From assembly GCA_963799845.1 (NCBI GenBank), contig CAWCYI010000006.1, forward strand, positions 1,344,001 through 1,408,000: a stretch of DNA of 64,000 nt, read 5' to 3'. A model generated the notes under the pieces. It was not told the origin of the DNA, did not search any database, and saw only the letters and a program-made list of their open reading frames with translations. Source of the DNA: an uncultured Nitrososphaerota archaeon. Lineage in GTDB: Archaea; Thermoproteota; Nitrososphaeria; Nitrososphaerales; CADDZS01. A program made the position numbers and the translations under genes. How positions within the stretch are numbered: position 1 is the stretch's first letter; each line of letters begins with the position of its first letter. Shown here piece after piece: positions 5,131 to 27,350 of the stretch.

Positions 5131-6147
5131 TCAGAGCCTTACTCGCGGGTCAACAGCTGCATATAGGATGTCTGCTGACAAATTCACGGCTACAACAAAG
5201 ACTGCATAAACTAGAGTAACGCCGAAAAGGCCGGCATAATCAAATGCTAATGCAGTTTGCAACGCATACCTTCCCATGCCTGGGTAAGAAAAAATCTGCT
5301 CTACAAAAAGATCTCCGATTAAGGTAAAGGTAAAAACTAAGGACGATAGAGTTACAAGCTCGATTAAAGAGTTCTTGAAAGCATAACGGTACAGTACCTG
5401 CGAAGATGAAACACCTCGCGCTTTTGCAGCTCGAACAAAATTGCTTCCTAGTTTCTCAATTAAGGACGATCTTAAGATTCTTGTCATCATTCCGTAGTTA
5501 GTTATAGCTAATGCCACGCTTGGTAAAATCAAATGCTGAATAAGACTTCCAAAAGCTTGCAATTTTCCTTCAAGTAACGCATCAATGAGTGGAAATCCGG
5601 TAATTGGACGAGGGAGCTGAATTGTAAGTCCTATCAGTCCTCCACTTGGCAGTATAGGAATTACATAAGAGAAAACAACTACGAAAAGAAGAGCTATCAA
5701 AAAGGGTGGAGAGCCTTGTCCCAGCATATATAGCAGCCTAGTCACCTTGTCCGGAAGTCTCCCAGCGAAACTCGCCGACAACAAAGCCCCGGCAAGACTT
5801 AGGAGAATTGTGATCACTACCGAAAGAACTACTAATTGCAGTGTTATAGGTAATGTCTGAGAGATTGCTTGCGAAACTAATTCATCTTTCGTAAATGAGA
5901 ATCCGAGCTGCAAGTGAAGAAGCCCATTTATGTAATAGAAAAACTGGATGTAAAGAGGATCGTTCAAATGATATGTGCGATCATATAACGCGGCCAAACC
6001 CGGATTGAACAGTGCGGTCTTCCCAAGCCAAGCGACCAAAGGATTGAAGGATAATGAATGCGCAAGCGTGAAAGTAATTACGGTGACTCCGAGGAGGACA
6101 CCAAAGCCCGTGCCAATCCTTCTCACGATAAATCCTAGCAGGCTCAT
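5131..6147 (-). CDS. Dpp/Opp-family ABC transporter permease (DppB-like)
   Basis: HLILP, FVRAAKARG, VEQIFSYPGMG and C-terminal DPRVR. Confidence 0.9.
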   Translation of the reverse strand: MSLLGFIVRRIGTGFGVLLGVTVITFTLAHSLSFNPLVAWLGKTALFNPGLAALYDRTYHLNDPLYIQFFYYINGLLHLQLGFSFTKDELVSQAISQTLPITLQLVVLSVVITILLSLAGALLSASFAGRLPDKVTRLLYMLGQGSPPFLIALLFVVVFSYVIPILPSGGLIGLTIQLPRPITGFPLIDALLEGKLQAFGSLIQHLILPSVALAITNYGMMTRILRSSLIEKLGSNFVRAAKARGVSSSQVLYRYAFKNSLIELVTLSSLVFTFTLIGDLFVEQIFSYPGMGRYALQTALAFDYAGLFGVTLVYAVFVVAVNLSADILYAAVDPRVRL

Positions 6148-6237
6148 CTAAGAACACGCACAAGAAGGCGGAGCCGAAATTTCCTTTGACTCAGGGAAAT
6201 CGTACGATTACCCCAATGCTAATGATTGTTGACTATA

Positions 6238-8199
6238 TCATCCAGGTTGAATCGTGTTTAGAGCAGGGAGATCGCTCACACCGGTGTCATCAGGTACCAT
6301 CAAGAGTCCAGCCACAGCCGCTTTGCTATAGACCCAAGAACCATCAGTGAAAAGTAGTTTTGGAGCAAACAACCAAGCAAAAGGCGCAGCATTGTAGACC
6401 TGCTGCTGAGCAATCTTAAGTTCAGCTAATGTCGCCGCCGTGTTATTCCCGGATAATAGAGTTAGAGCTGTGTCGGCTGCAGGACTATTATACATCGACC
6501 AGTCTCCAGCAGCAGAAGAATTCGTAACGAATGTTGTCCAGTAATCTGAAGGAGCAAGGTAGTCTGGACAGAAAGCGCTACTACTTCCCAGCAATATATT
6601 GGGAACAATGGAAGGATCCTTTATCAGGGTACCATAGGGAACCGTGAGTATTTGCGAAACGATGTAGCTCCTGGCTTCGACCTGTAACGACACTTTGATT
6701 CCGATCTGAGCGAGGCCTTGTTGAATTATCTCCGCTGCTGGTAGAGCCCAAGTCGTAGATCCGCTGTTGACAACAAGTGGCATTGTTGGAAGACCAGTCC
6801 CGTTTGGAAAGCCAGCAGCTGAAAGATATTGATTAGCTTCTGTAATATTGAAATCATAGGGAGGAAGATTGCCTGGATCATAATATTGGCCATAGTTAGG
6901 CGTCTCAGGCCCCATAACTGGTATCGCCTGACCTGAAACAGCTTGATCAATTATGGCTGTATAATTTATTGCATGTACAATTGCTTGCCTAACATCCGTG
7001 ATATTAGTCGGATAAATCTGAGTGTTGAGACCCATTCTAACTATGCACGCCGGGTAGGGAAGCGAAATATATCCAAACTGTGGGCTCTGCTGTACAGCTT
7101 GAAAATTCGCCCCCTCCACTTGTGCTATTTGCGCTTTCGAGCTTGAAAGGTCGAGGTACTCTGAAGTCGGATTGGGAACTTGGTTCACTACTATAGTCCC
7201 AAATTGTCCTGGTTGAATCAGAGGGTTTTCTGAATCCTCAGTTGTTGTCAAGTTATTACCCCAATATCCAGAGTTTTTCGTGAAGGTAAGAGATGAGTCA
7301 ACAGCGATGTTCGACATAACATATGGGCCAGTTCCTGGGGGAGGATTCGCGTTCAGGTAAGCGTTCGGAGAGACAGGAGTCCCAGGTCCACCATGTTGCA
7401 TAATGTACAACGGATCAAACATCATACTTCCCCAACCGACAAATGAGTTCAGAAAGAATTGGAAAGGCGTGCTCAAATGGAACACTATTCTGTCCGGGCT
7501 AGTGACATACACCGGCCAAGACGAATTGGACATTAAAGCCATTAATTGAGATGAAGGATTTGCCAAGCTAGTGCCGTTCATCAAAGAAAGCGTCGCAGGA
7601 CCAAACTCAACGGCAGATGAGTTAAAAATTGGAAGTGGTACCCAGAAGAATGTTGAATTCGAGGAGGCATAGTAGAAGAGGTAAAAGTCTTCCCAAGCTG
7701 TGTATGCATTGAATGAATCTCCGTTTGAAAACTGAATGCCAGTTCTAATGTTGAAGGTATACGTCTCACCATCGGAGGACACGTTCCAACTAGAGGCTAA
7801 CCCTGGTAAGAATTGAATTTGTCCCGAATACTCTGCTGCTGTCGCATTCATAACAACAAGTGGTTGATAAACTGCATATTCCTGCCAGTAGGGATAGGGA
7901 AACGCTAATGGATCCAGAGAAGGACTCGGCCAAGTCGGATCATCGATAATGAGTGTAGACGGGACAGCAGAAGTTGATGTTGTCGAAGTTGACGTGGACA
8001 GAGAACTTGCTGCGGTGGTAGAAATTGAGCTTGATGCTGTAGTCAAAGTCGAGCTAGTCGCGATTGAAGAGGAAGTAGTAGTAGTTGAACTCGTACTTAG
8101 AGAAACATAGACAGCGGCCGCTGCGATAATGAGAATGACGACAACTATCGCGACAATAATAAGAATAGTTCTGGCAATTGCATTTTTGTTTCTGTCCAT
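6238..8199 (-). CDS. ABC transporter substrate-binding protein (family 5), membrane-anchored
   Basis: N-terminal hydrophobic helix and S/T-rich linker, followed by LASSWNVSSDGETYTF, GTGPY and VRQAIVHAIN. Confidence 0.9.
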   Translation of the reverse strand: MDRNKNAIARTILIIVAIVVVILIIAAAAVYVSLSTSSTTTTSSSIATSSTLTTASSSISTTAASSLSTSTSTTSTSAVPSTLIIDDPTWPSPSLDPLAFPYPYWQEYAVYQPLVVMNATAAEYSGQIQFLPGLASSWNVSSDGETYTFNIRTGIQFSNGDSFNAYTAWEDFYLFYYASSNSTFFWVPLPIFNSSAVEFGPATLSLMNGTSLANPSSQLMALMSNSSWPVYVTSPDRIVFHLSTPFQFFLNSFVGWGSMMFDPLYIMQHGGPGTPVSPNAYLNANPPPGTGPYVMSNIAVDSSLTFTKNSGYWGNNLTTTEDSENPLIQPGQFGTIVVNQVPNPTSEYLDLSSSKAQIAQVEGANFQAVQQSPQFGYISLPYPACIVRMGLNTQIYPTNITDVRQAIVHAINYTAIIDQAVSGQAIPVMGPETPNYGQYYDPGNLPPYDFNITEANQYLSAAGFPNGTGLPTMPLVVNSGSTTWALPAAEIIQQGLAQIGIKVSLQVEARSYIVSQILTVPYGTLIKDPSIVPNILLGSSSAFCPDYLAPSDYWTTFVTNSSAAGDWSMYNSPAADTALTLLSGNNTAATLAELKIAQQQVYNAAPFAWLFAPKLLFTDGSWVYSKAAVAGLLMVPDDTGVSDLPALNTIQPG

Positions 8200-8450
8200 T
8201 TTCAGCAATCCCGTTCAAATACATGCGCATAAATAAACGTTACGTGAAAGAACGAGAGAAAAAATTCAAAACAGAATTCGAGTCCTTAACTTTCACACTT
8301 TGAATCCGAATCATAGTTTCCAACCAAGCTAATTATAGATTGAAAATAAGAGTTGAATCCTGTCACTTATGCAGCAATTGTCGCTATTACGCCCGTTCTG
8401 GTTTTCTGGGCATAAGTCATAAGTTAATAGAATGCATTAGAGTGGCACTA

Positions 8451-19799: not shown

Positions 19800-20016
19800 A
19801 TCGAGCTACGCATAGTAGCAAGATATCAGAAAGTTGGGTTCAGCTCGATTTGAACCTGCGATTGGGAAGTACGAATTCGAAGGCTGGGCTTCTTTGAAGA
19901 ATGCAATCGGAGAATTTTCTGAATCGTATCGTCTATATCCGTCGATCTCCGAACTGCTTTTTTTGTTTGAGTTGGCAGATGTCTTACATTTGCGTCGAGA
20001 AATTAGTAATGTTCAG

Positions 20017-21600
20017 CTAATTCTTCTTATCGCCGTTCTTCGTTAGCTCCTCATAGAAGGAGATGACAGCTTTTTCCTGTTTCTTCTCGATTGATCCTGG
20101 TCTTTTTGATCTTATCTTGGAGATAGCCTCGTCAGGAGCCAAGCCATACATCTTGCAGAGGTAGGCGGCAAGAACCGTTCCTGTCCTGCCTTTTCCCGCC
20201 GCGCAATTATGAACGATTGCACCATTTGCTAGGTAAGTATGGTTATCTTCAATTTCAAGGTTGTAAACAAGTCCGGAATACATCGATTTCTCAAGCGATA
20301 CAACCGGCATGCAATAGTAATTTGACCATAGAGCAGTATAGTGAGATGTGCTCTTCTCCCTCCACTCGACAATCCAAGCCGGGGATGGCCTTTCAAATCC
20401 GCTGTGCCGTTTGAATTGTCTTATGTACGGATGCCATCCGTTTTCCAGCACTAGATTCCAAACCTGAAAGGCCAGCGTCAAAGAAGTAGAGAAAAACGAC
20501 GAGCTTTCTCTTTTAGTCGAATAATAGGCATCGCCGTCGGTTACACCCTCCAGCACTGCCTTAGAATCGCATCCATGAAGGAACCCCGGCAAGCGTTTTT
20601 CCAATGAATTCGTCCCGAACCAATTTCGGAAATTATATGTCAACGTTCTCGAGTAGACTTTGATCCTTGTGTAGTTCTCGTGCTCGTCGACCTTCGGTTC
20701 AACCCCAAATTGGCCGAAAGCTCGTAGGGCCCGATCAATATCATCATTTTTTCCTAGAGTTAGTTGCAAACCTCTCGACCCGATCGATGAGCCGTCTGCC
20801 GCGTAGAGACCCATCAGCCATGAGACGTCAGCAGAGGCTAAAGGCTCAACCACTTTGTTCGAATTCGGATTGTCTGATTTCCACTCGAATCTGATCTTGC
20901 CTTCTTGTCTAGATTTCTGAGCAACTATCGGCGAGAGAAGAAAATCCCCAGGTACCAAATCCTTTGCCAAAACCCAGATTGGTTGTGTCTTATCCCAATT
21001 TCGGAGGATCGGATATTTTTTGCGACCTTTTCCGATCCAGTTTGGCTTGTAAGAGTAACCTTTTGGCTCTCTGTGCGGTCTGTAGATTAGAAACGGGTGC
21101 TCTGGGGTGCAAGTAATCGGCAAGGTCCCCCTTGATCTTATCTGAAACACCGGACCGTTGTAATAACGCTCGAATTTTTTGACTATCTTGTTCGATACTC
21201 CATCGCTACTGGTAACATATCCGAAGATTCTGTTTATCGGCGTGGGTAATGAAGACCCTACTACCGTGGACGGGATGAAGCAATGGACGTCAGTCTTATG
21301 ATTGAGTCCTCGCTCTGAAACCAGGAAATCGACGGACTCTCGCAATTGGGAGATGGTTGGAATCGCATGGTTTACCATTGGTACATTCTTGAAGTCTAGC
21401 CCGTCGATCCAATTCTTGTTGATTGGCTCTTCGGTCAGGGAGAGTAGCGCCTTGACACCATTTCTCTTCAGCCAGTCGACCTCTCTCTGAGAAAAGGGTC
21501 GCGCAGAAGCGCTCACGTAGTCGTCTATGAAGGAGAAATTCATTGGCTTCCCCAAAACTCTCCCGTAAATCCATCGGACGATATCCCCTGGTTCAAACAT
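20017..21600 (-). CDS. Dual-specificity/tyrosine protein phosphatase containing an intein
   Basis: Joining the exteins gives VHCAAGKGRTG (HCx5R) and AISKIRSKRPGSIE, a 168-aa mature protein. Confidence 0.92.
   Translation of the reverse strand: MFEPGDIVRWIYGRVLGKPMNFSFIDDYVSASARPFSQREVDWLKRNGVKALLSLTEEPINKNWIDGLDFKNVPMVNHAIPTISQLRESVDFLVSERGLNHKTDVHCFIPSTVVGSSLPTPINRIFGYVTSSDGVSNKIVKKFERYYNGPVFQIRSRGTLPITCTPEHPFLIYRPHREPKGYSYKPNWIGKGRKKYPILRNWDKTQPIWVLAKDLVPGDFLLSPIVAQKSRQEGKIRFEWKSDNPNSNKVVEPLASADVSWLMGLYAADGSSIGSRGLQLTLGKNDDIDRALRAFGQFGVEPKVDEHENYTRIKVYSRTLTYNFRNWFGTNSLEKRLPGFLHGCDSKAVLEGVTDGDAYYSTKRESSSFFSTSLTLAFQVWNLVLENGWHPYIRQFKRHSGFERPSPAWIVEWREKSTSHYTALWSNYYCMPVVSLEKSMYSGLVYNLEIEDNHTYLANGAIVHNCAAGKGRTGTVLAAYLCKMYGLAPDEAISKIRSKRPGSIEKKQEKAVISFYEELTKNGDKKN
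20206..21282 (-). mobile_element. Intein with LAGLIDADG homing endonuclease (359 aa)
   Basis: Starts CFIPST; block B ITCTPEHPF; LMGLYAADG and LEGVTDGD; VYNLEIEDNHTYLANGAIVHN followed by Cys+1. Confidence 0.93.
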
Positions 21601-21682
21601 ACTCAGACACCTGTTTTGATATTCGGTTGCTTTCCCAATCCTCGAAGTAGTACGTTTTGTAACTTTTCCTCTTCCCTAGTCG

Positions 21683-22437
21683 GGTACCGGCCACTTAAGG
21701 ACAAAGGATATGGCCAGGGAACTATCTTCTATCGTTTTTGGTGACGAAACAATGGAGGACGAGTTCTACCTAGCCACACTCGACCGTAAGATATTTCGTG
21801 AGAAATAAGGTTTCAAGAGAAATCAAGGCAGAAGCTGTCAGGCTCTACTTGGAGGGTCTGTCTCTCAGGGTGATAGCAAGAAAGTTTTCTGTGAGCAAGG
21901 AGTCTGTCAGGCAGTGGGTGCTCAAATTCGAGGAAGCTTTTGCAGAAAAGAAGCTTACAGGGAAGAAGGAGAGACCTGTAATTCTATTGGATGAGACCAA
22001 GCTCAAGAGGCATGGAAGGATCGTGTACGTCTCAGTGTGCCTAGATCTCGAACGAAGAGAGGTAATTTCAACGCAGTGCATGAGGTCCATTACACTGGTA
22101 AACACGGTGGGGATCGTGAGGGAGGCTCTCAAATCATGCGCAAATGAGAAACCACTTTTAATCGTGGATCATGCGCCATGGTACAAACCAGTCTTCGAAT
22201 GGCTAAAAGTAGATTTCATACAAAGGACGTTTGGAATCAGGAATTACATCGAGAGGTGGTATAGAACGTTCAAGGAGAGGACGAGGAGATTCTACAACAA
22301 CTTCCCTATCAAAAATGAGGCAAGAGCTATCGAGCGAATAGCTAGATTCCTTCATCTGTTCACCTATTGGTACAACCACATGCGACCTCATGAGACGTTC
22401 AAAGGGAGAGTTCCATCGTCCTTATCTTGACGGTACC
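21683..22437 (+). mobile_element. IS6-family element (755 bp)
   Basis: Imperfect IRs GGTACCGGCCACTTAAGG / CCTTATCTTGACGGTACC, with direct repeat CCCTAGTCG (21674-21682, 22438-22446). Confidence 0.85.
21798..22430 (+). CDS. IS6-family transposase
   Basis: GLSLR...SVRQWV, LLDETK, IVDHAPWY and NYIERWYRTFKERT. The true start may be ~21710 via a 1-nt indel. Confidence 0.88.
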   Translation: MRNKVSREIKAEAVRLYLEGLSLRVIARKFSVSKESVRQWVLKFEEAFAEKKLTGKKERPVILLDETKLKRHGRIVYVSVCLDLERREVISTQCMRSITLVNTVGIVREALKSCANEKPLLIVDHAPWYKPVFEWLKVDFIQRTFGIRNYIERWYRTFKERTRRFYNNFPIKNEARAIERIARFLHLFTYWYNHMRPHETFKGRVPSSLS

Positions 22438-22665
22438 CCCTAGTCGCTAGATCAGATTTTATATGGTCGATATAATAGCGGCGGTCGAAGATAGCAGACT
22501 GAATGTCTGAGGAGTTAGATCAATCAAATTAATTGCTGGCAAACTGAGAACATGCAGTTCTCAATTGCGATCAATTCATATGGAATTGCCTTTGGTTCGG
22601 GTGAGCAAATCAAGAGTGAAACCCGAAGGGAATTTGAATCGAGGTTGACCAAGGCTTATCTAGAA

Positions 22666-23756
22666 TAGGAGTTACGCATTTGGCCGAAAAGAATTTGGCC
22701 AGGATTGTTTCTCTGGTTCATCAGACGCTGCATGAACCCTCCAAAATGCGATGACAATGACTACATAGACTTCCTGATAGCATCCCAGAAATCATTCGCT
22801 TGCACCGAAGCTGCTAGATGTCAGCCTGATGATGATGCAGGAGTCACGCCGCCAGCACACGATAGCTTCACCCGCCTTCTGGAGAGACTGCCTGCGGATA
22901 CAGAAGCGCTCTGGGATGAGGCGAAGAGGATCATCGCCGTTACTGCGGGAGGAGTACTGATAGTCGATGATTCAACTCTGGACAAACCGTACGCGGAGAA
23001 GATGGATTACGTCACGTACCACTGGAGCGGAAAACACCACAGTGTGGTGAAGGGGATAAATCTCATCACAACACTATGGAGCGATGGTAACGCCCTCATT
23101 CCATGTGACTTTAGACTCTACAATGCGTCAAAAGACGGTCTCACCAAGAACGATCACTTCCAGGACATGTTGTTGGTTGCAAAGCAGAGAGGGATGGAAC
23201 CAAAATACGTCCTCTTTGACAGCTGGGTACTCGAGCATGGAAAATCTGAAGCTCATCGCAAGGGAGCTCGGGTGGCATTTCTTCTGCCGCCTCAAGGAGA
23301 ACAGGCTCGTCAATCCAACGGGCAGAAAAAAAGGAAACAAACCAATCAAGGACGTGGAGATCCCGCCTGAGGGAACCACGGTTCATCTCATGGGATTCGG
23401 AATGGTCAGGGTGTTCAGGACAGCCTCCAAGAAAGGAGACATTGAACACTGGGCTACCGATGACGTTGGGATGAATGAGGAAAAGAGAGATGAACTCTCT
23501 GACCAAGGATGGGGAATCGAGGAGTACCACAGAGGAGTCAAGCAGTGTTGTGGCATTGAGAGGGCTCAGGTCAGGAAGGCGACATCCATTCTGAATCACA
23601 TCCACATGTCAATAAGGGCGTTCATACGTCTAGAATTGTGCAGATTGATGACCGGGATAAGCTGGTACGAAGCGAAGGCGAGAATCGTCAGAGATGCGAT
23701 AAGGAGCTGACATTGCACACCCAATCTATCTTCTTGGGTCAACCGCGTAACTCCTA
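22666..23756 (+). mobile_element. IS701-family element
   Basis: IRs TAGGAGTTACGC / GCGTAACTCCTA with 5-bp target duplication TAGAA. Confidence 0.85.
22732..23750 (+). CDS. IS701-family transposase (two 1-nt frameshifts, ~23227 and ~23709)
   Basis: YIDFLIAS, HDSFTRLL, IVDDSTLDK, FDSW(Y) and WGIEEYHRGVKQCCG. Confidence 0.82.
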
Positions 23757-23901
23757 TAGAAGATGTGTCACTGTTTGAGCCTCGATCGCAAATGGTCGTA
23801 ACAGATCGCCCTGAGTCTCAATTGGGCTCCTTTAGTCACGTTGTCAATATCATTTGGGTTCTAATGATCACCAGACGCAAATCTGCGGGGGTCAAATAAA
23901 T

Positions 23902-24516
23902 TTGGGCAGTTTAACTCCAGAAATGGTCAAGAGAATTAACGAAGTTTATGCTGAAATTCCTGTTTACAAAAAAGTAGCCCAAAAAATCAGTGCTGAAACG
24001 GGCACGAGACTTGATTAGCGTACAGTCAAGAAGTATGTTAAAGCATCTTCACGCCGATCAAGCCGAGCGGAAGTAAATGTACGTGCTCTTGCCAATAAGT
24101 CTCATTCCGATGCGCAAGCGACGAGCACTGCTTTCAAGATGTTTCGCGGGGGCAAATCGGCAGTAGACGTTGTGACGGTCATTGGATTGGATCCAAAGAA
24201 AGCACTCGAACTGCACAAGGGATTCCAGAGCCTGAAGGAAATAGAGATGCAGACAGAAGGGGAGCCTTGGTCGTACAAGATAAAGTTGGAAGAATTGCAG
24301 AGGAATTATGATGCCCTTGATCTCGCAAGCTCAAAAGATGCCGCTATCAGTGCGAGTGTAATTCGTTCACTCCAAAAACAGATCAGAGTGAAGGACCTGC
24401 GGATCCGGGACCAGAAGGACGAACTCGATGCGCTCAAAAGTATGATCACAAACGGTGCTTTCGCGACTATTTCGCCACTCCAGAAAACCAAGAGTTTGAA
24501 CCTCCAACAATCCTGA
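23902..24516 (+). pseudogene. HTH/coiled-coil protein with in-frame TAG at 24016-24018
   Basis: MGSLTPEMVKRINEVY...KKVAQKISAETGTRLD*RTVKKY continues in frame into the 24139 ORF. Confidence 0.5.
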
Positions 24517-24722: not shown

Positions 24723-27350
24723 ATGGCAAATTACGATTATGATGTAATAATCGCGGGCGGCGGAATGGCCGGCCTCATTACGGCTGCCTCGATTTCTGTC
24801 TACTCCAAACAGAAAGCTCGCATACTTGTGGTTGACAGAAACCCCCCACAGGATCCCGGAAAGAAAACGATAAACGGGTGGACCTGTGGCGACGCGGTAA
24901 GTAAGCGAAGCGTCGATTACATAGCGGACAATATCGGAATTCGTTATGGAACACCTGAACTGGAGCATCCGGTGGAAGGCGTGCTCGTTTACTCTCCAGA
25001 CCACGAAACAAAGGTATTGTTTGAAGGTCAGGGTTTCATCCTCAATCGCAAGATCCTTCCACGCAGACAGGTCGAGGATGCAAAAAAACTCGGCGTAGAG
25101 TTCGTGTATAACGTAATTTGTGACAGACTTTACTCCGAGGACGGGTTTGTTCGCGGAGTAACTGGCCGCTCAATGCCCGAAGGAACTGCTTTCAAGAAGA
25201 CAGCGAAGATGGTAGTCGATGCGGCAGGCTCTGCAACAAAACTTCGCCCCAATCTTCCGTTTCAGACGAAAATCGATGCGAATATTGATCGGGATGATCT
25301 AGAAAGCACAGGCAGATACATCTTTGATTTTGAGGTTGGAACAGAAAATCAGACATGGTTTGATTCCCGTTATGCCCTGATTCATTTAGATCAATATCTC
25401 GCTCCAGGTGGTTACTGCCTTGCCCCCGATACCCCAGTAGTATGTCAAAACAGCTTGAAGCCAATTCAAGATGTAAAATTGGGCGATGAAGTCCTTACTT
25501 CCATGGGCTGGATTCCGGTGGTTGACACGAGTGTCAGGAATTACGAAGGTGAACTCGTCGTCGTCACTCCAAGTATGATAAACTATCCAATTCGACTCAC
25601 TTCGGATCACCTTGTAAGAGTGTGGAATCCTCGAACAGGGGAGTCTTGGAAGAGGGCCGAGGATCTTGTCAGAAGCACTGTCGCTAACCGTCGCAAAAGT
25701 GACTATTTGGTATTTCCCTTACCGAAGAAGAAGGAGTCGCCACTGGAGATTCTGGACATTACGGAATACTGCGAAGGGATTGTTGAGGGAGATTACATGC
25801 ATGTGAGGATTAGACAAGAATTCTACGCCGGAAGATCTCCAGATGGAAGCTATCTCAGAAGAACTGGATATGCAAAACATCCGAAGGGCACGAGATTACC
25901 CACGAAGATACAGCTCGATTCGGACTTCCTTGAACTTTGTGGCTGGTACCTGTCCGAAGGTTGCATAAAGAGAGGTCATGTTACGATCTCGAATACCAAT
26001 GAAGGGCATGTGGATCGAGTAACGTCGTTAATCGATAGATTAGGCTACAATTGGCTTGTTTGGGACAATAGAAGTAATGGGAGGAAACTGTGTCACAACA
26101 TAGAGATTACGAATTCACTTGTCGGAATGCTGTTTTCTAAATGCTTTGGCGTGGGTTCTCATAGTAAGAAACTTCCGAGTTGGGTGCATAACATAAGCGA
26201 GGAAAACAAGCTCGCATTGCTCCGGGGAATGTACTTGGGAGATGGTAGCATCGAACGGGGAAAAGACGGTCGTTCAGACAAACGAGACTACACTACCGTA
26301 TCGCGAGGTTTAGCCGTAGATCTTTGGCTGTTGCTGGCCGGAATGAAGATTGTCGGTTCACTCAAATTAATCAAAAAGAAGAACGCTTGGGCCGTAATAG
26401 TTCCTGGTCACCAAGCTGGATTCTTGGGAGAAAATCTGAATCAATCAAAGAAAAAGCAGAGAGGCGGATTTTTCATTGGAGACGACTGCATTTATCTTCG
26501 AATCAGATCCATCGGCCACGAGAAGTATTCCGGTCCAGTTTACGACATCAACTCTGCAGGGGACTTTACACCCCTGTTCAGTGTTCACAACTGCTGGACC
26601 TTCCCTAAAGGTAAAAGCAAGGTAAATATCGGCCTCGGCGTCCAGAAAAAGCTCTGGACGAGAGAAACAAAAATTTCGGTAAGAAGGACGGATTGCAGGA
26701 TCTGATAGACCAGTACGTTGGCATGAACAAGGTGATCAAAAATCCCGTCCAATCAAAGGAGGAGGACGACGGGGGCAATACGAAAGGGAGCTGGCAGGTC
26801 TCCGTAAGGAGACATAACGATTGTCTTGTAGCCAATGGGTATGCCATGGTCGGGGACGCCGCCTGGATGGCGCGGCCCATTGATGCAGGGGGGATTGGCC
26901 CTTCGATCTACGCAAGCGTGATGCTAGGCAAGGTAGTCGCTCGTGCGATCGAAGCAAACGACACGAGTGAGGAAGGGCTGTGGCAGTATAACCTGGATTA
27001 CATGAAGCATCACGGCTACCAGATGGCGAGTTTCGAGGTTCTTCGTAGGTACTTGCAAACTCTCACAAATGAGCAGATCAGTTATGGAATGAAGTACTTC
27101 CTCTCCGAAGACGATATCTCAAGTATAGTGAATCGCGAGCACCCTCGGTTCAGCCGGCTGAGATTTTTGAATCCGGCGATGATGGTTCGGATTGCAAAGG
27201 AGTCTAAGCTGAGCTTCCGGCCTGAAACACACAGCGGATTCAAGTGAGGAGCTGATAGCGCACAACATGAACTATCCGGAAAAACCAAGTGGTTTCGTCG
27301 AGTGGAAGAGCCAGTTTTTGTCAAAACTTCAGGAAGCCTTCAGGTTCTAA
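24723..27350 (+). CDS. Geranylgeranyl reductase family (digeranylgeranylglycerophospholipid reductase-like) with intein; frameshifts ~26650 and ~27213
   Basis: DVIIAGGGMAG, CGDAVS, spliced PGGYCWTFPKG...VNIGLG, and VGDAA...PIDAGGI. The corrected frame ends at TAA 27348-27350. Confidence 0.9.
25416..26591 (+). mobile_element. Intein with LAGLIDADG homing endonuclease (392 aa)
   Basis: Starts CLAPDT; block B LTSDH; LCGWYLSEG and LRGMYLGDG; VYDI...SVHN followed by Cys+1. Confidence 0.92.

Follow-up and report, generated by a model that had tools for sequence, protein, structure and literature searches.

The window analysed here, a stretch of 64,000 nucleotides from an uncultured soil archaeon of the Nitrososphaerota (GenBank assembly GCA_963799845.1, contig CAWCYI010000006.1, positions 1,344,001 to 1,408,000), contains a phosphatase gene that is interrupted by an intein at the codon of its catalytic cysteine. 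With good confidence, the element can be regarded as a canonical class-1 intein with a two-motif LAGLIDADG homing endonuclease, most likely selfish and splicing constitutively, that invaded the VH/CxxGxxR codons of this gene. These are the most conserved codons of the host, a small, cysteine-based phosphatase that is widespread in the archaeal order to which the window belongs. The element itself is canonical; what is new is the host family, in which no fewer than 33 copies were counted, the majority being cluster representatives.

Structure of the precursor gene and junctions of the intein

The precursor gene is located at positions 20017..21600 on the minus strand of the window and comprises 527 codons, beginning with an ATG start, and a stop codon, as deduced from the list of open reading frames (ORFs) and the Pfam matches. 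The translation of the minus strand yielded the order ...NHKTDVH / CFIPST...GAIVHN / CAAGKGRTGT. Accordingly, the precursor is divided into an N-extein of residues 1-106 (21283..21600, minus strand) that ends in KTDVH and is devoid of cysteine, an intein of 359 amino acids (residues 107-465, CFIPST...GAIVHN; 20206..21282, minus strand) and a C-extein of 62 amino acids (residues 466-527; 20020..20205, minus strand). The end of the N-extein was assigned by translation and by alignment to intein-free alleles of 168 amino acids, and the C-extein by alignment and by its matches to the phosphatases DUSP23 and SsoPTP. The two junctions translate to VHCF (21277..21288) and HNCAAGKGR (20185..20211).

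An alignment with eight intein-free homologues (P0020-P0025, P0053 and P0120) displayed the insert as a single clean gap, VH/CAAG, and the exteins of 106 and 62 amino acids add up to 168 amino acids, the full length of the intein-free proteins P0020-P0022. A clean insert of 359 amino acids whose predicted excision restores the host length is far beyond chance. The precursor was also recognized by the profiles of both partners: the Pfam families PTP-SAK (54.5 bits, cut-off 27) and DSPc (40.6 bits, cut-off 33.5), both scoring above the curated cut-offs, identify a member of the dual-specificity phosphatase (DSP) and protein tyrosine phosphatase (PTP) group, and Intein_splicing (41.3 bits, cut-off 35.8), LAGLIDADG_3 (22.9 bits, cut-off 22.5) and the NCBIfam profile intein_Cterm (31.8 bits, cut-off 15.6) identify the insert.

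Once the insert is removed, H106 and CAAGKGRT form the HC(X)5R(S/T) signature of these enzymes, which is unbroken in the intein-free alleles. The phosphate-binding Cx5R loop CAAGKGR (20185..20205, minus strand) extends from Cys466, the +1 residue of the intein (codon 20203..20205), to Arg472, as defined by translation, by alignment to DUSP23 and by the alignment of phosphatase-hosted copies described below. The original prediction, made from the letters of the window alone, had proposed a 359-amino-acid LAGLIDADG intein in a phosphatase and had equated its +1 cysteine with the cysteine of the HCx5R motif. The former statement turned out to be exact by translation, Pfam and alignment, and with respect to the latter the Pfam matches, the alignment to DUSP23 and that to the intein-free proteins agree that Cys466 holds both roles.

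Splicing and endonuclease residues of the intein

The conservation of individual residues was assessed in an alignment of 33 phosphatase-hosted copies, termed A3, which consists of the window sequence and 32 relatives with a phosphatase-like loop. By means of translation and alignment, the following elements were assigned on the minus strand: the codon of Cys1 (residue 107; 21280..21282), the nucleophile with which splicing begins; the block B motif TxxH, which reads TPEH and includes T165 and H168 (21097..21108); a first LAGLIDADG motif, WLMGLYAADG, with D269 (20791..20820); a second one, VLEGVTDGDA, with D357 (20527..20556), which is additionally supported by Foldseek; and the penultimate His464 with the terminal Asn465 of the intein (20206..20211). 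The residues T165, H168, G270, H464, N465, C466, G469 and R472 are invariant in all 33 sequences, and H106, C107, D269, K335, G356 and D357 are conserved in at least 90% of them. Among the 32 relatives, cysteine is present at intein position 1 in 31, and aspartate in 29 at the D269 column and in 31 at the D357 column. Since the catalytic residues are invariant or conserved to at least 90% in the 33 copies, the active sites for splicing and for DNA cleavage both look maintained at the level of sequence.

Cys1, the block B motif TxxH and the C-terminal His-Asn followed by Cys+1 are features of a class-1 intein. The aspartate of block F, by contrast, is replaced by Asn447 (20260..20262, minus strand), which aligns with the aspartate present in the inteins Spl DnaX and Mja KlbA. 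In the relatives of the set P0001-P0280 this column contains asparagine in 129 of 149 sequences and aspartate in eight. The block F aspartate, named as a splicing helper in the review PMC10663303, is a common rather than a strictly defining feature of class-1 inteins.

An AlphaFold model of the precursor, calculated with an alignment of 12 intein-bearing sequences, reached a mean predicted local distance difference test (pLDDT) score of 76, with means of 81-92 for ten-residue blocks in the endonuclease domain (residues 251-400) and values below 50 for residues 101-104 and 468-472 flanking the junctions. A Foldseek search with this model delivered the TliVMA intein (7qsu) as the best match (E-value 1.6e-19), followed by PI-SceI, PhoVMA and PI-PfuI; below the inteins, the free LAGLIDADG enzymes I-DmoI and I-Tsp061I were matched over approximately 178 columns (E-values of about 1e-6). 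The intein matches, the pLDDT of 76 and the Pfam family Intein_splicing indicate a HINT fold, and the two motifs, each with an acidic residue, together with the match to the LAGLIDADG fold indicate a double-motif endonuclease.

The chemistry of class-1 splicing is textbook knowledge. Applied to this precursor, the bond between His106 and Cys107 would undergo an N-S acyl shift through Cys107, aided by T165 and H168, whereupon the thiol of Cys466 would accept the N-extein by transesterification; cyclization of Asn465, aided by His464, would then free the intein, and an S-N shift would create a normal His-Cys peptide bond and restore the HCAAGKGRT loop of the 168-amino-acid phosphatase. During homing, alleles that lack the intein would be cut by the endonuclease across the codons of the insertion site and would receive a copy of the intein through repair.

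The phosphatase host and its active site

In a comparison with solved structures, the C-extein matched human DUSP23 (E-value 4e-13) and SsoPTP of Sulfolobus (E-value 1.6e-8), beginning at the HC(X)5R loop. A weak alignment of the N-extein reached as far as VHC. The column of the general-acid aspartate is occupied by Asn77, followed by His78 (21367..21372, minus strand). Among 120 intein-free homologues, this column contains asparagine in 89 and aspartate in 31, and the next residue is histidine in 118. The catalytic acid of the archaeal phosphatase family may differ from the textbook one, as far as can be judged from such alignments. The column of Cys482, which lies in the helix following the loop at a distance of 16 residues, contains cysteine in 95 of the 120 homologues; this residue was considered as a 'backdoor' cysteine, is common in the family and was not used as evidence.

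The insert parts His106 from Cys466, and it is a reasonable inference that phosphatase activity needs splicing, with the reservation that the geometry of the junctions is uncertain in the model. With an easily measured activity expected only after splicing, the precursor would represent a convenient natural reporter for splicing kinetics and for conditional splicing.

Distribution of the intein in databases and genomes

A word-indexed search for proteins of similar length resulted in 19 matches, 11 of which (P0001-P0011) have the same junctions; ten of these possess a phosphatase-like C-extein, which P0009 lacks. In 1.84 billion cluster representatives, searched exhaustively, 5128 matches with an E-value of at most 0.001 were obtained, the best 150 of which were used. 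Altogether, 149 long proteins were examined, namely P0001-P0019 and the long ones among P0140-P0280. A regular expression detected the pattern xN/Cx5R in 41 of the 149; nine of them (P0178, P0189, P0191, P0198, P0202, P0207, P0209, P0230 and P0278) have loops unlike those of phosphatases and were left out of A3. A homologous intein interrupts at least 32 further database proteins at this junction, which comprise archaeal as well as actinophage-type phosphatases, and the database check for inteins in the DSP family that had been suggested along with the original prediction consequently showed that the window copy is not unique. When scanned separately, 24 of the 33 phosphatase-hosted copies matched the Pfam family DSPc with an E-value of at most 0.001. 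Their loops fall into the subfamilies CAAGKGRTG (archaeal), CQAGLNRS, CAAGISRS and CxxGxNRG. The automatic source names of some copies, such as 'intein/homing endonuclease', indicate that annotation pipelines had already flagged them.

The protein P0009 (670 amino acids) contains a homologous intein with 38% identity and a C-extein of the sequence CTFGANSPG... that has neither the arginine of Cx5R nor a DSP match in Pfam. It represents either a phosphatase that has decayed or another kind of host, and was excluded from A3.

In phages of Mycobacterium, Gordonia and Rhodococcus, genes with the annotation 'dual specificity phosphatase' or else 'PTPc tyrosine phosphatase' were matched by the P0007 exteins. 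None of the 43 phage records matching P0007 covers 80% of the query, and all are intein-free. Relatives of the intein are encoded at 59 loci of viral contigs in IMG/VR, one of which (L020) has the junction HN/CQAGLNRS.

Within the order of the window, full-length matches were confined to two of 201 genomes, that of the window itself (G000) and G072; the set of 201 includes G000 and also G102, whose match covers the N-extein only. The other top matches were either extein-only, in ORFs of about 165-225 amino acids, or intein-only, in other genes; a further 370 weaker matches ranked below those listed, and any full-length copy would have appeared among the first matches. A scan of a genome collection with the whole protein returned three short matches to intein ends in unrelated metagenome-assembled genomes, a scan that missed the window's own genome as well.

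Probable mobility and descent of the intein

The original prediction had called for intein-free alleles to be sought. A search for shorter proteins provided 511 matches, the best of which were the 168-amino-acid proteins P0020-P0022, named protein-tyrosine or atypical dual-specificity phosphatase in their sources. Such intein-free alleles of 168 amino acids exist with 77-89% extein identity (89% in the case of P0020) and contain no residue of the insert. A homing intein that invades intein-free alleles would explain why closely related genes differ in the presence of the intein.

A phylogenetic tree was calculated from the exteins only, with the intein columns removed, and included 57 sequences (the window, P0001-P0005 and P0020-P0070). 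The six intein-bearing sequences occur in several places of this tree and need six changes, and the well-supported branches force at least four. The window sequence and P0001 cluster with the intein-free P0020 (support 97), and P0005 is the sister of the intein-free P0051 (support 99). This patchy presence, as seen in the sequence tree, agrees with an intein that was gained and lost repeatedly through homing. Between members of distant subfamilies, the inteins resemble each other more than the exteins do, with intein versus extein identities of 57 versus 24% for P0007 and P0011, 54 versus 15% for P0007 and P0009, and 37 versus 27% for the window and P0007. Since the inteins exceed the exteins in similarity, our reading is that the intein was probably passed between distantly related phosphatase genes at a shared motif and was subsequently inherited, with loss or re-invasion occurring repeatedly.

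Several observations weigh against this interpretation or against the canonical nature of the element. A shuffling of the presence labels on the extein tree was uninformative, as 500 of 500 shuffles were equally low. Within the archaeal group, the identities of inteins and exteins are about equal (90.5/90.5, 64.6/68.3 and 54.6/50.0%), and such parallel values also fit a long vertical descent with losses. The GC content is 46.2% in the intein and 48.9% in the exteins, and that at third codon positions (GC3) is 50% and 59%, respectively, with no clear sign of a recent arrival; composition was dropped as an indicator of recent arrival, the difference being small. Furthermore, both splicing and DNA cleavage are predictions from sequence and model, and with Asn447 in place of the block F aspartate the splicing chemistry may differ in detail or rate.

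The equal divergence of inteins and exteins in the archaeal group and the near-host GC and GC3 values would also be expected from an element in decay, which still splices but has an inactive endonuclease and is inherited vertically as a passenger heading for loss. A third observation on this side comes from contigs of four soil-metagenome runs (X1-X4, one study), which were compared over positions 19800..21800: none of them contained a junction in which the 1077-bp intein was skipped; contigs drop rare variants, so that this result says nothing on the absence of an empty allele; one X1 contig spans both junctions (20066..21525). On the other hand, both LAGLIDADG aspartates are kept, Lys335 is conserved, the endonuclease domain is modelled confidently (residues 251-400, pLDDT 81-92) and very close intein-free alleles exist, as exemplified by P0020. 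A decaying endonuclease is therefore considered rather unlikely.

Selection of the insertion site

The canonical intein proposed here belongs to a clade with a marked preference for certain junction residues. Position -1 is histidine in 29 of the 32 phosphatase-hosted relatives and in 57 of the 76 relatives from other hosts that could be aligned at this column, 41 more being unaligned there. The pair Cys1/Cys+1 is present in at least 98 of 117 relatives from other hosts. At the DNA level, the junction ...GTNCAY/TGCGCNGCNGG is conserved in the intein-free loci L006 and L007, in L002 and in the window. Since this conserved DNA coincides with residues used by the clade, such inteins find, as read from these sequences, a natural landing site in the HC of the phosphatase signature, and the position at the catalytic cysteine can be explained by a conserved DNA target together with the clade habit of His/Cys junctions. 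In general, inteins favour conserved active-site motifs but rarely sit at catalytic residues, according to PMC4760082.

The H/C junction recurs across unrelated hosts of the clade. The closest non-phosphatase relatives among the matches listed are P0158, P0162, P0173 and P0174 (1880-2063 amino acids; 33-37% identity by BLASTP), which share the conserved junction MGH/C...HN/CVGGYC. In the genome of the window, a related intein with 31% identity is located in a protein of 522 amino acids (L013, 1363..2931, minus strand; contig G000:C6, approximately 672.4-673.9 kb). Its junction is CPH/C...HN/CGRRFPTDIQLSMHTKLH, and the spliced form would read C-x2-C-x12-H-x3-H, resembling a zinc finger, in which the +1 cysteine would be a metal ligand. 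Further relatives at comparable junctions are an intein between tandem cysteines of a protein that resembles a NuoB-like subunit by sequence reading (L012, 1150..3036, minus strand, in G131; ETAC/C...HN/CSVEV) and an intein in a protein that similarly resembles pyruvate dehydrogenase E1-alpha (L008, 1306..3339, minus strand, in G167; TTRL/C...HN/CWHKQG).

The genome G000 (4.6 Mb in nine contigs) encodes at least six intein-bearing ORFs. Those on contig G000:C4 include L014 (1262..4546 and 5200..8388) and L015 (1227..3797). One of the C4 inteins is inserted in a family B DNA polymerase, and two others, approximately 650 bp apart, are inserted in large ORFs of 1094 and 1062 amino acids with no other Pfam domains at an E-value of at most 1e-4.

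With respect to these hosts, the designation of the phosphatase as an atypical host, as given in the original prediction, holds in comparison with older surveys but not within the clade: metabolic hosts are normal for it, since relatives in the same order sit in NuoB, pyruvate dehydrogenase E1-alpha and geranylgeranyl reductase, and another in the zinc-finger-like protein.

Proposed conditional splicing of the precursor

The initial reading of the window had also nominated the intein as a candidate for redox- or metal-conditional splicing that gates phospho-signalling. According to this explanation, splicing would be blocked reversibly when Cys107, the low-pKa Cys466 or both are oxidized or bind a metal, so that active phosphatase would be produced under permissive conditions only, and the intein would act as a post-translational switch. 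Precedents exist in DnaB proteins: in M. smegmatis DnaBi1, H2O2 inhibits splicing reversibly via a disulfide of the catalytic cysteine, as described in PMC6195587, and inhibition of DnaB splicing by zinc and by reactive chlorine is reported in PMC7360933 and PMC8557812. Moreover, both splicing nucleophiles of the phosphatase precursor are cysteines, Cys466 being the phosphatase nucleophile as well, and the asparagine in block F could conceivably make the second step rely on the phosphate-binding loop for activation of Cys+1. Nothing specific to the window copy was found, however. The N-extein contains no cysteine, which makes a trap of the Cys(-3) type impossible, and both the Cys1/Cys+1 pair and Asn447 are shared with relatives in unrelated hosts and are therefore no adaptation to the phosphatase. 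In addition, 199 of the 201 genomes of the order are devoid of the intein-bearing form, so that no conserved regulatory need is visible, and the patchy, homing-like distribution fits a selfish element. With a cysteine-free N-extein and a cysteine pair that occurs clade-wide, the proposal of conditional splicing finds no support in the sequence, and we regard it as quite improbable. The gating of phospho-signalling presupposes a protein substrate, and the same genome encodes a second DSPc protein (L016, HCKNGRDRS) and a low-molecular-weight phosphatase (LMWPc) protein; this part of the proposal was not upheld either.

A more speculative variant, which we consider very doubtful, assumes that the clade with His at -1, Cys at +1 and Asn in block F leaves the activation of the +1 residue to the host. 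In phosphatase hosts, a low-pKa thiolate for transesterification would come from the phosphate-binding loop, and maturation would be inherently sensitive to oxidation of the cysteine through which the redox control of such enzymes operates. If true, this would provide a built-in redox gate on phosphatase production that is common to archaeal and phage-borne copies.

Genetic environment of the phosphatase gene

The gene order nth (endonuclease III), DUF2203, phosphatase and divergent geranylgeranyl reductase is kept in the intein-bearing locus L002 (genome G072) and in the intein-free locus L006 (G034), and the phosphatase locus is orthologous between intein-bearing and intein-free genomes. In the window, transposase-like ORFs (21798..24516, plus strand) split the phosphatase gene from the reductase gene, a block that is missing from the syntenic locus L006. 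The domains of this block are HTH_23/HTH_Tnp_1, DDE_5 and DDE_Tnp_1, with the DDE part in two overlapping frames.

The adjoining geranylgeranyl reductase gene (24723..27247, plus strand) contains a second LAGLIDADG intein of 392 amino acids (25416..26591) with the junctions GGY/CLAP...SVHN/CWTFP; the orthologue in L006 has alanine at the position of the +1 cysteine. About 20 codons after this intein, near a run of A residues (approximately 26645..26660), the reductase frame shifts by one base, and the remainder is represented by the ORF 26693..27247. The frameshift is either real or a homopolymer error of the assembly. A search for amoA gave no match in the genome of the window, which is 86.7% complete, and the control genomes were equally silent.

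That the precursor is a dead gene, unable to splice and with its role covered by the second DSPc and the LMWPc protein of the genome, might be suspected from the mobile-element activity next to it (transposase ORFs 21798..24516) and from the frameshift in the neighbouring reductase gene, but this is hardly credible with an intact frame of 527 codons, a G072 copy that is likewise free of internal stops, all splicing residues kept, exteins 90.5% identical to those of P0001 and 89% identical to the intein-free P0020, and an unchanged catalytic loop.

Comparison with known intein systems

Full-text searches, supplementary tables and InBase lying outside their scope, revealed no paper that describes tyrosine or dual-specificity phosphatases with a natural intein, and the term 'phosphatase' occurs zero times in the main texts of the intein surveys PMC4760082, PMC5050341 and PMC10663303. 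A phosphatase-hosted intein is thus apparently undescribed for this enzyme family. By the present data, cysteine-based phosphatases of the DSP/PTP superfamily join the list of intein hosts, with the insertion at the catalytic nucleophile itself. The same insertion point in archaeal DUSP23-like and in actinophage-type phosphatases suggests a transfer between very different hosts. For the biology of the organism the finding is probably neutral.

With respect to architecture, the phosphatase intein resembles TliVMA and PhoVMA (7qsu, 7qss, 7qst), PI-SceI (1vde and others) and PI-PfuI (1dq3), which have the same HINT fold with an inserted double LAGLIDADG domain (E-values from 1.6e-19 to 2.5e-12) and share Cys1, the terminal His-Asn and Cys+1. 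They differ from it in sequence, with 12-15% identity, and in their hosts, which are V-ATPase or ribonucleotide reductase, whereas the phosphatase intein is characterized by asparagine in block F and histidine at -1. The Mja KlbA intein is a class 2 intein with alanine at position 1. This intein (MJ0781; 2jmz) is the nearest solved intein by sequence (E-value 6e-4), and its blocks B, F and G align, but it is a mini-intein without endonuclease and has aspartate at the position of Asn447. On the host side, human DUSP23 (2img, 4erc) and Sulfolobus SsoPTP (2i6i) are relatives that align with the C-extein, starting at the HC(X)5R loop and continuing to the end; in contrast to the precursor they are intein-free, and the column of their general-acid aspartate corresponds to Asn77 in the window phosphatase. 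With respect to regulation, M. smegmatis DnaBi1 provides the idea of an oxidizable catalytic splicing cysteine that could also apply to the phosphatase intein; according to PMC6195587, DnaBi1 is a class 3 intein in a replicative helicase with experimentally established redox sensitivity, whereas the phosphatase intein is known from its sequence.

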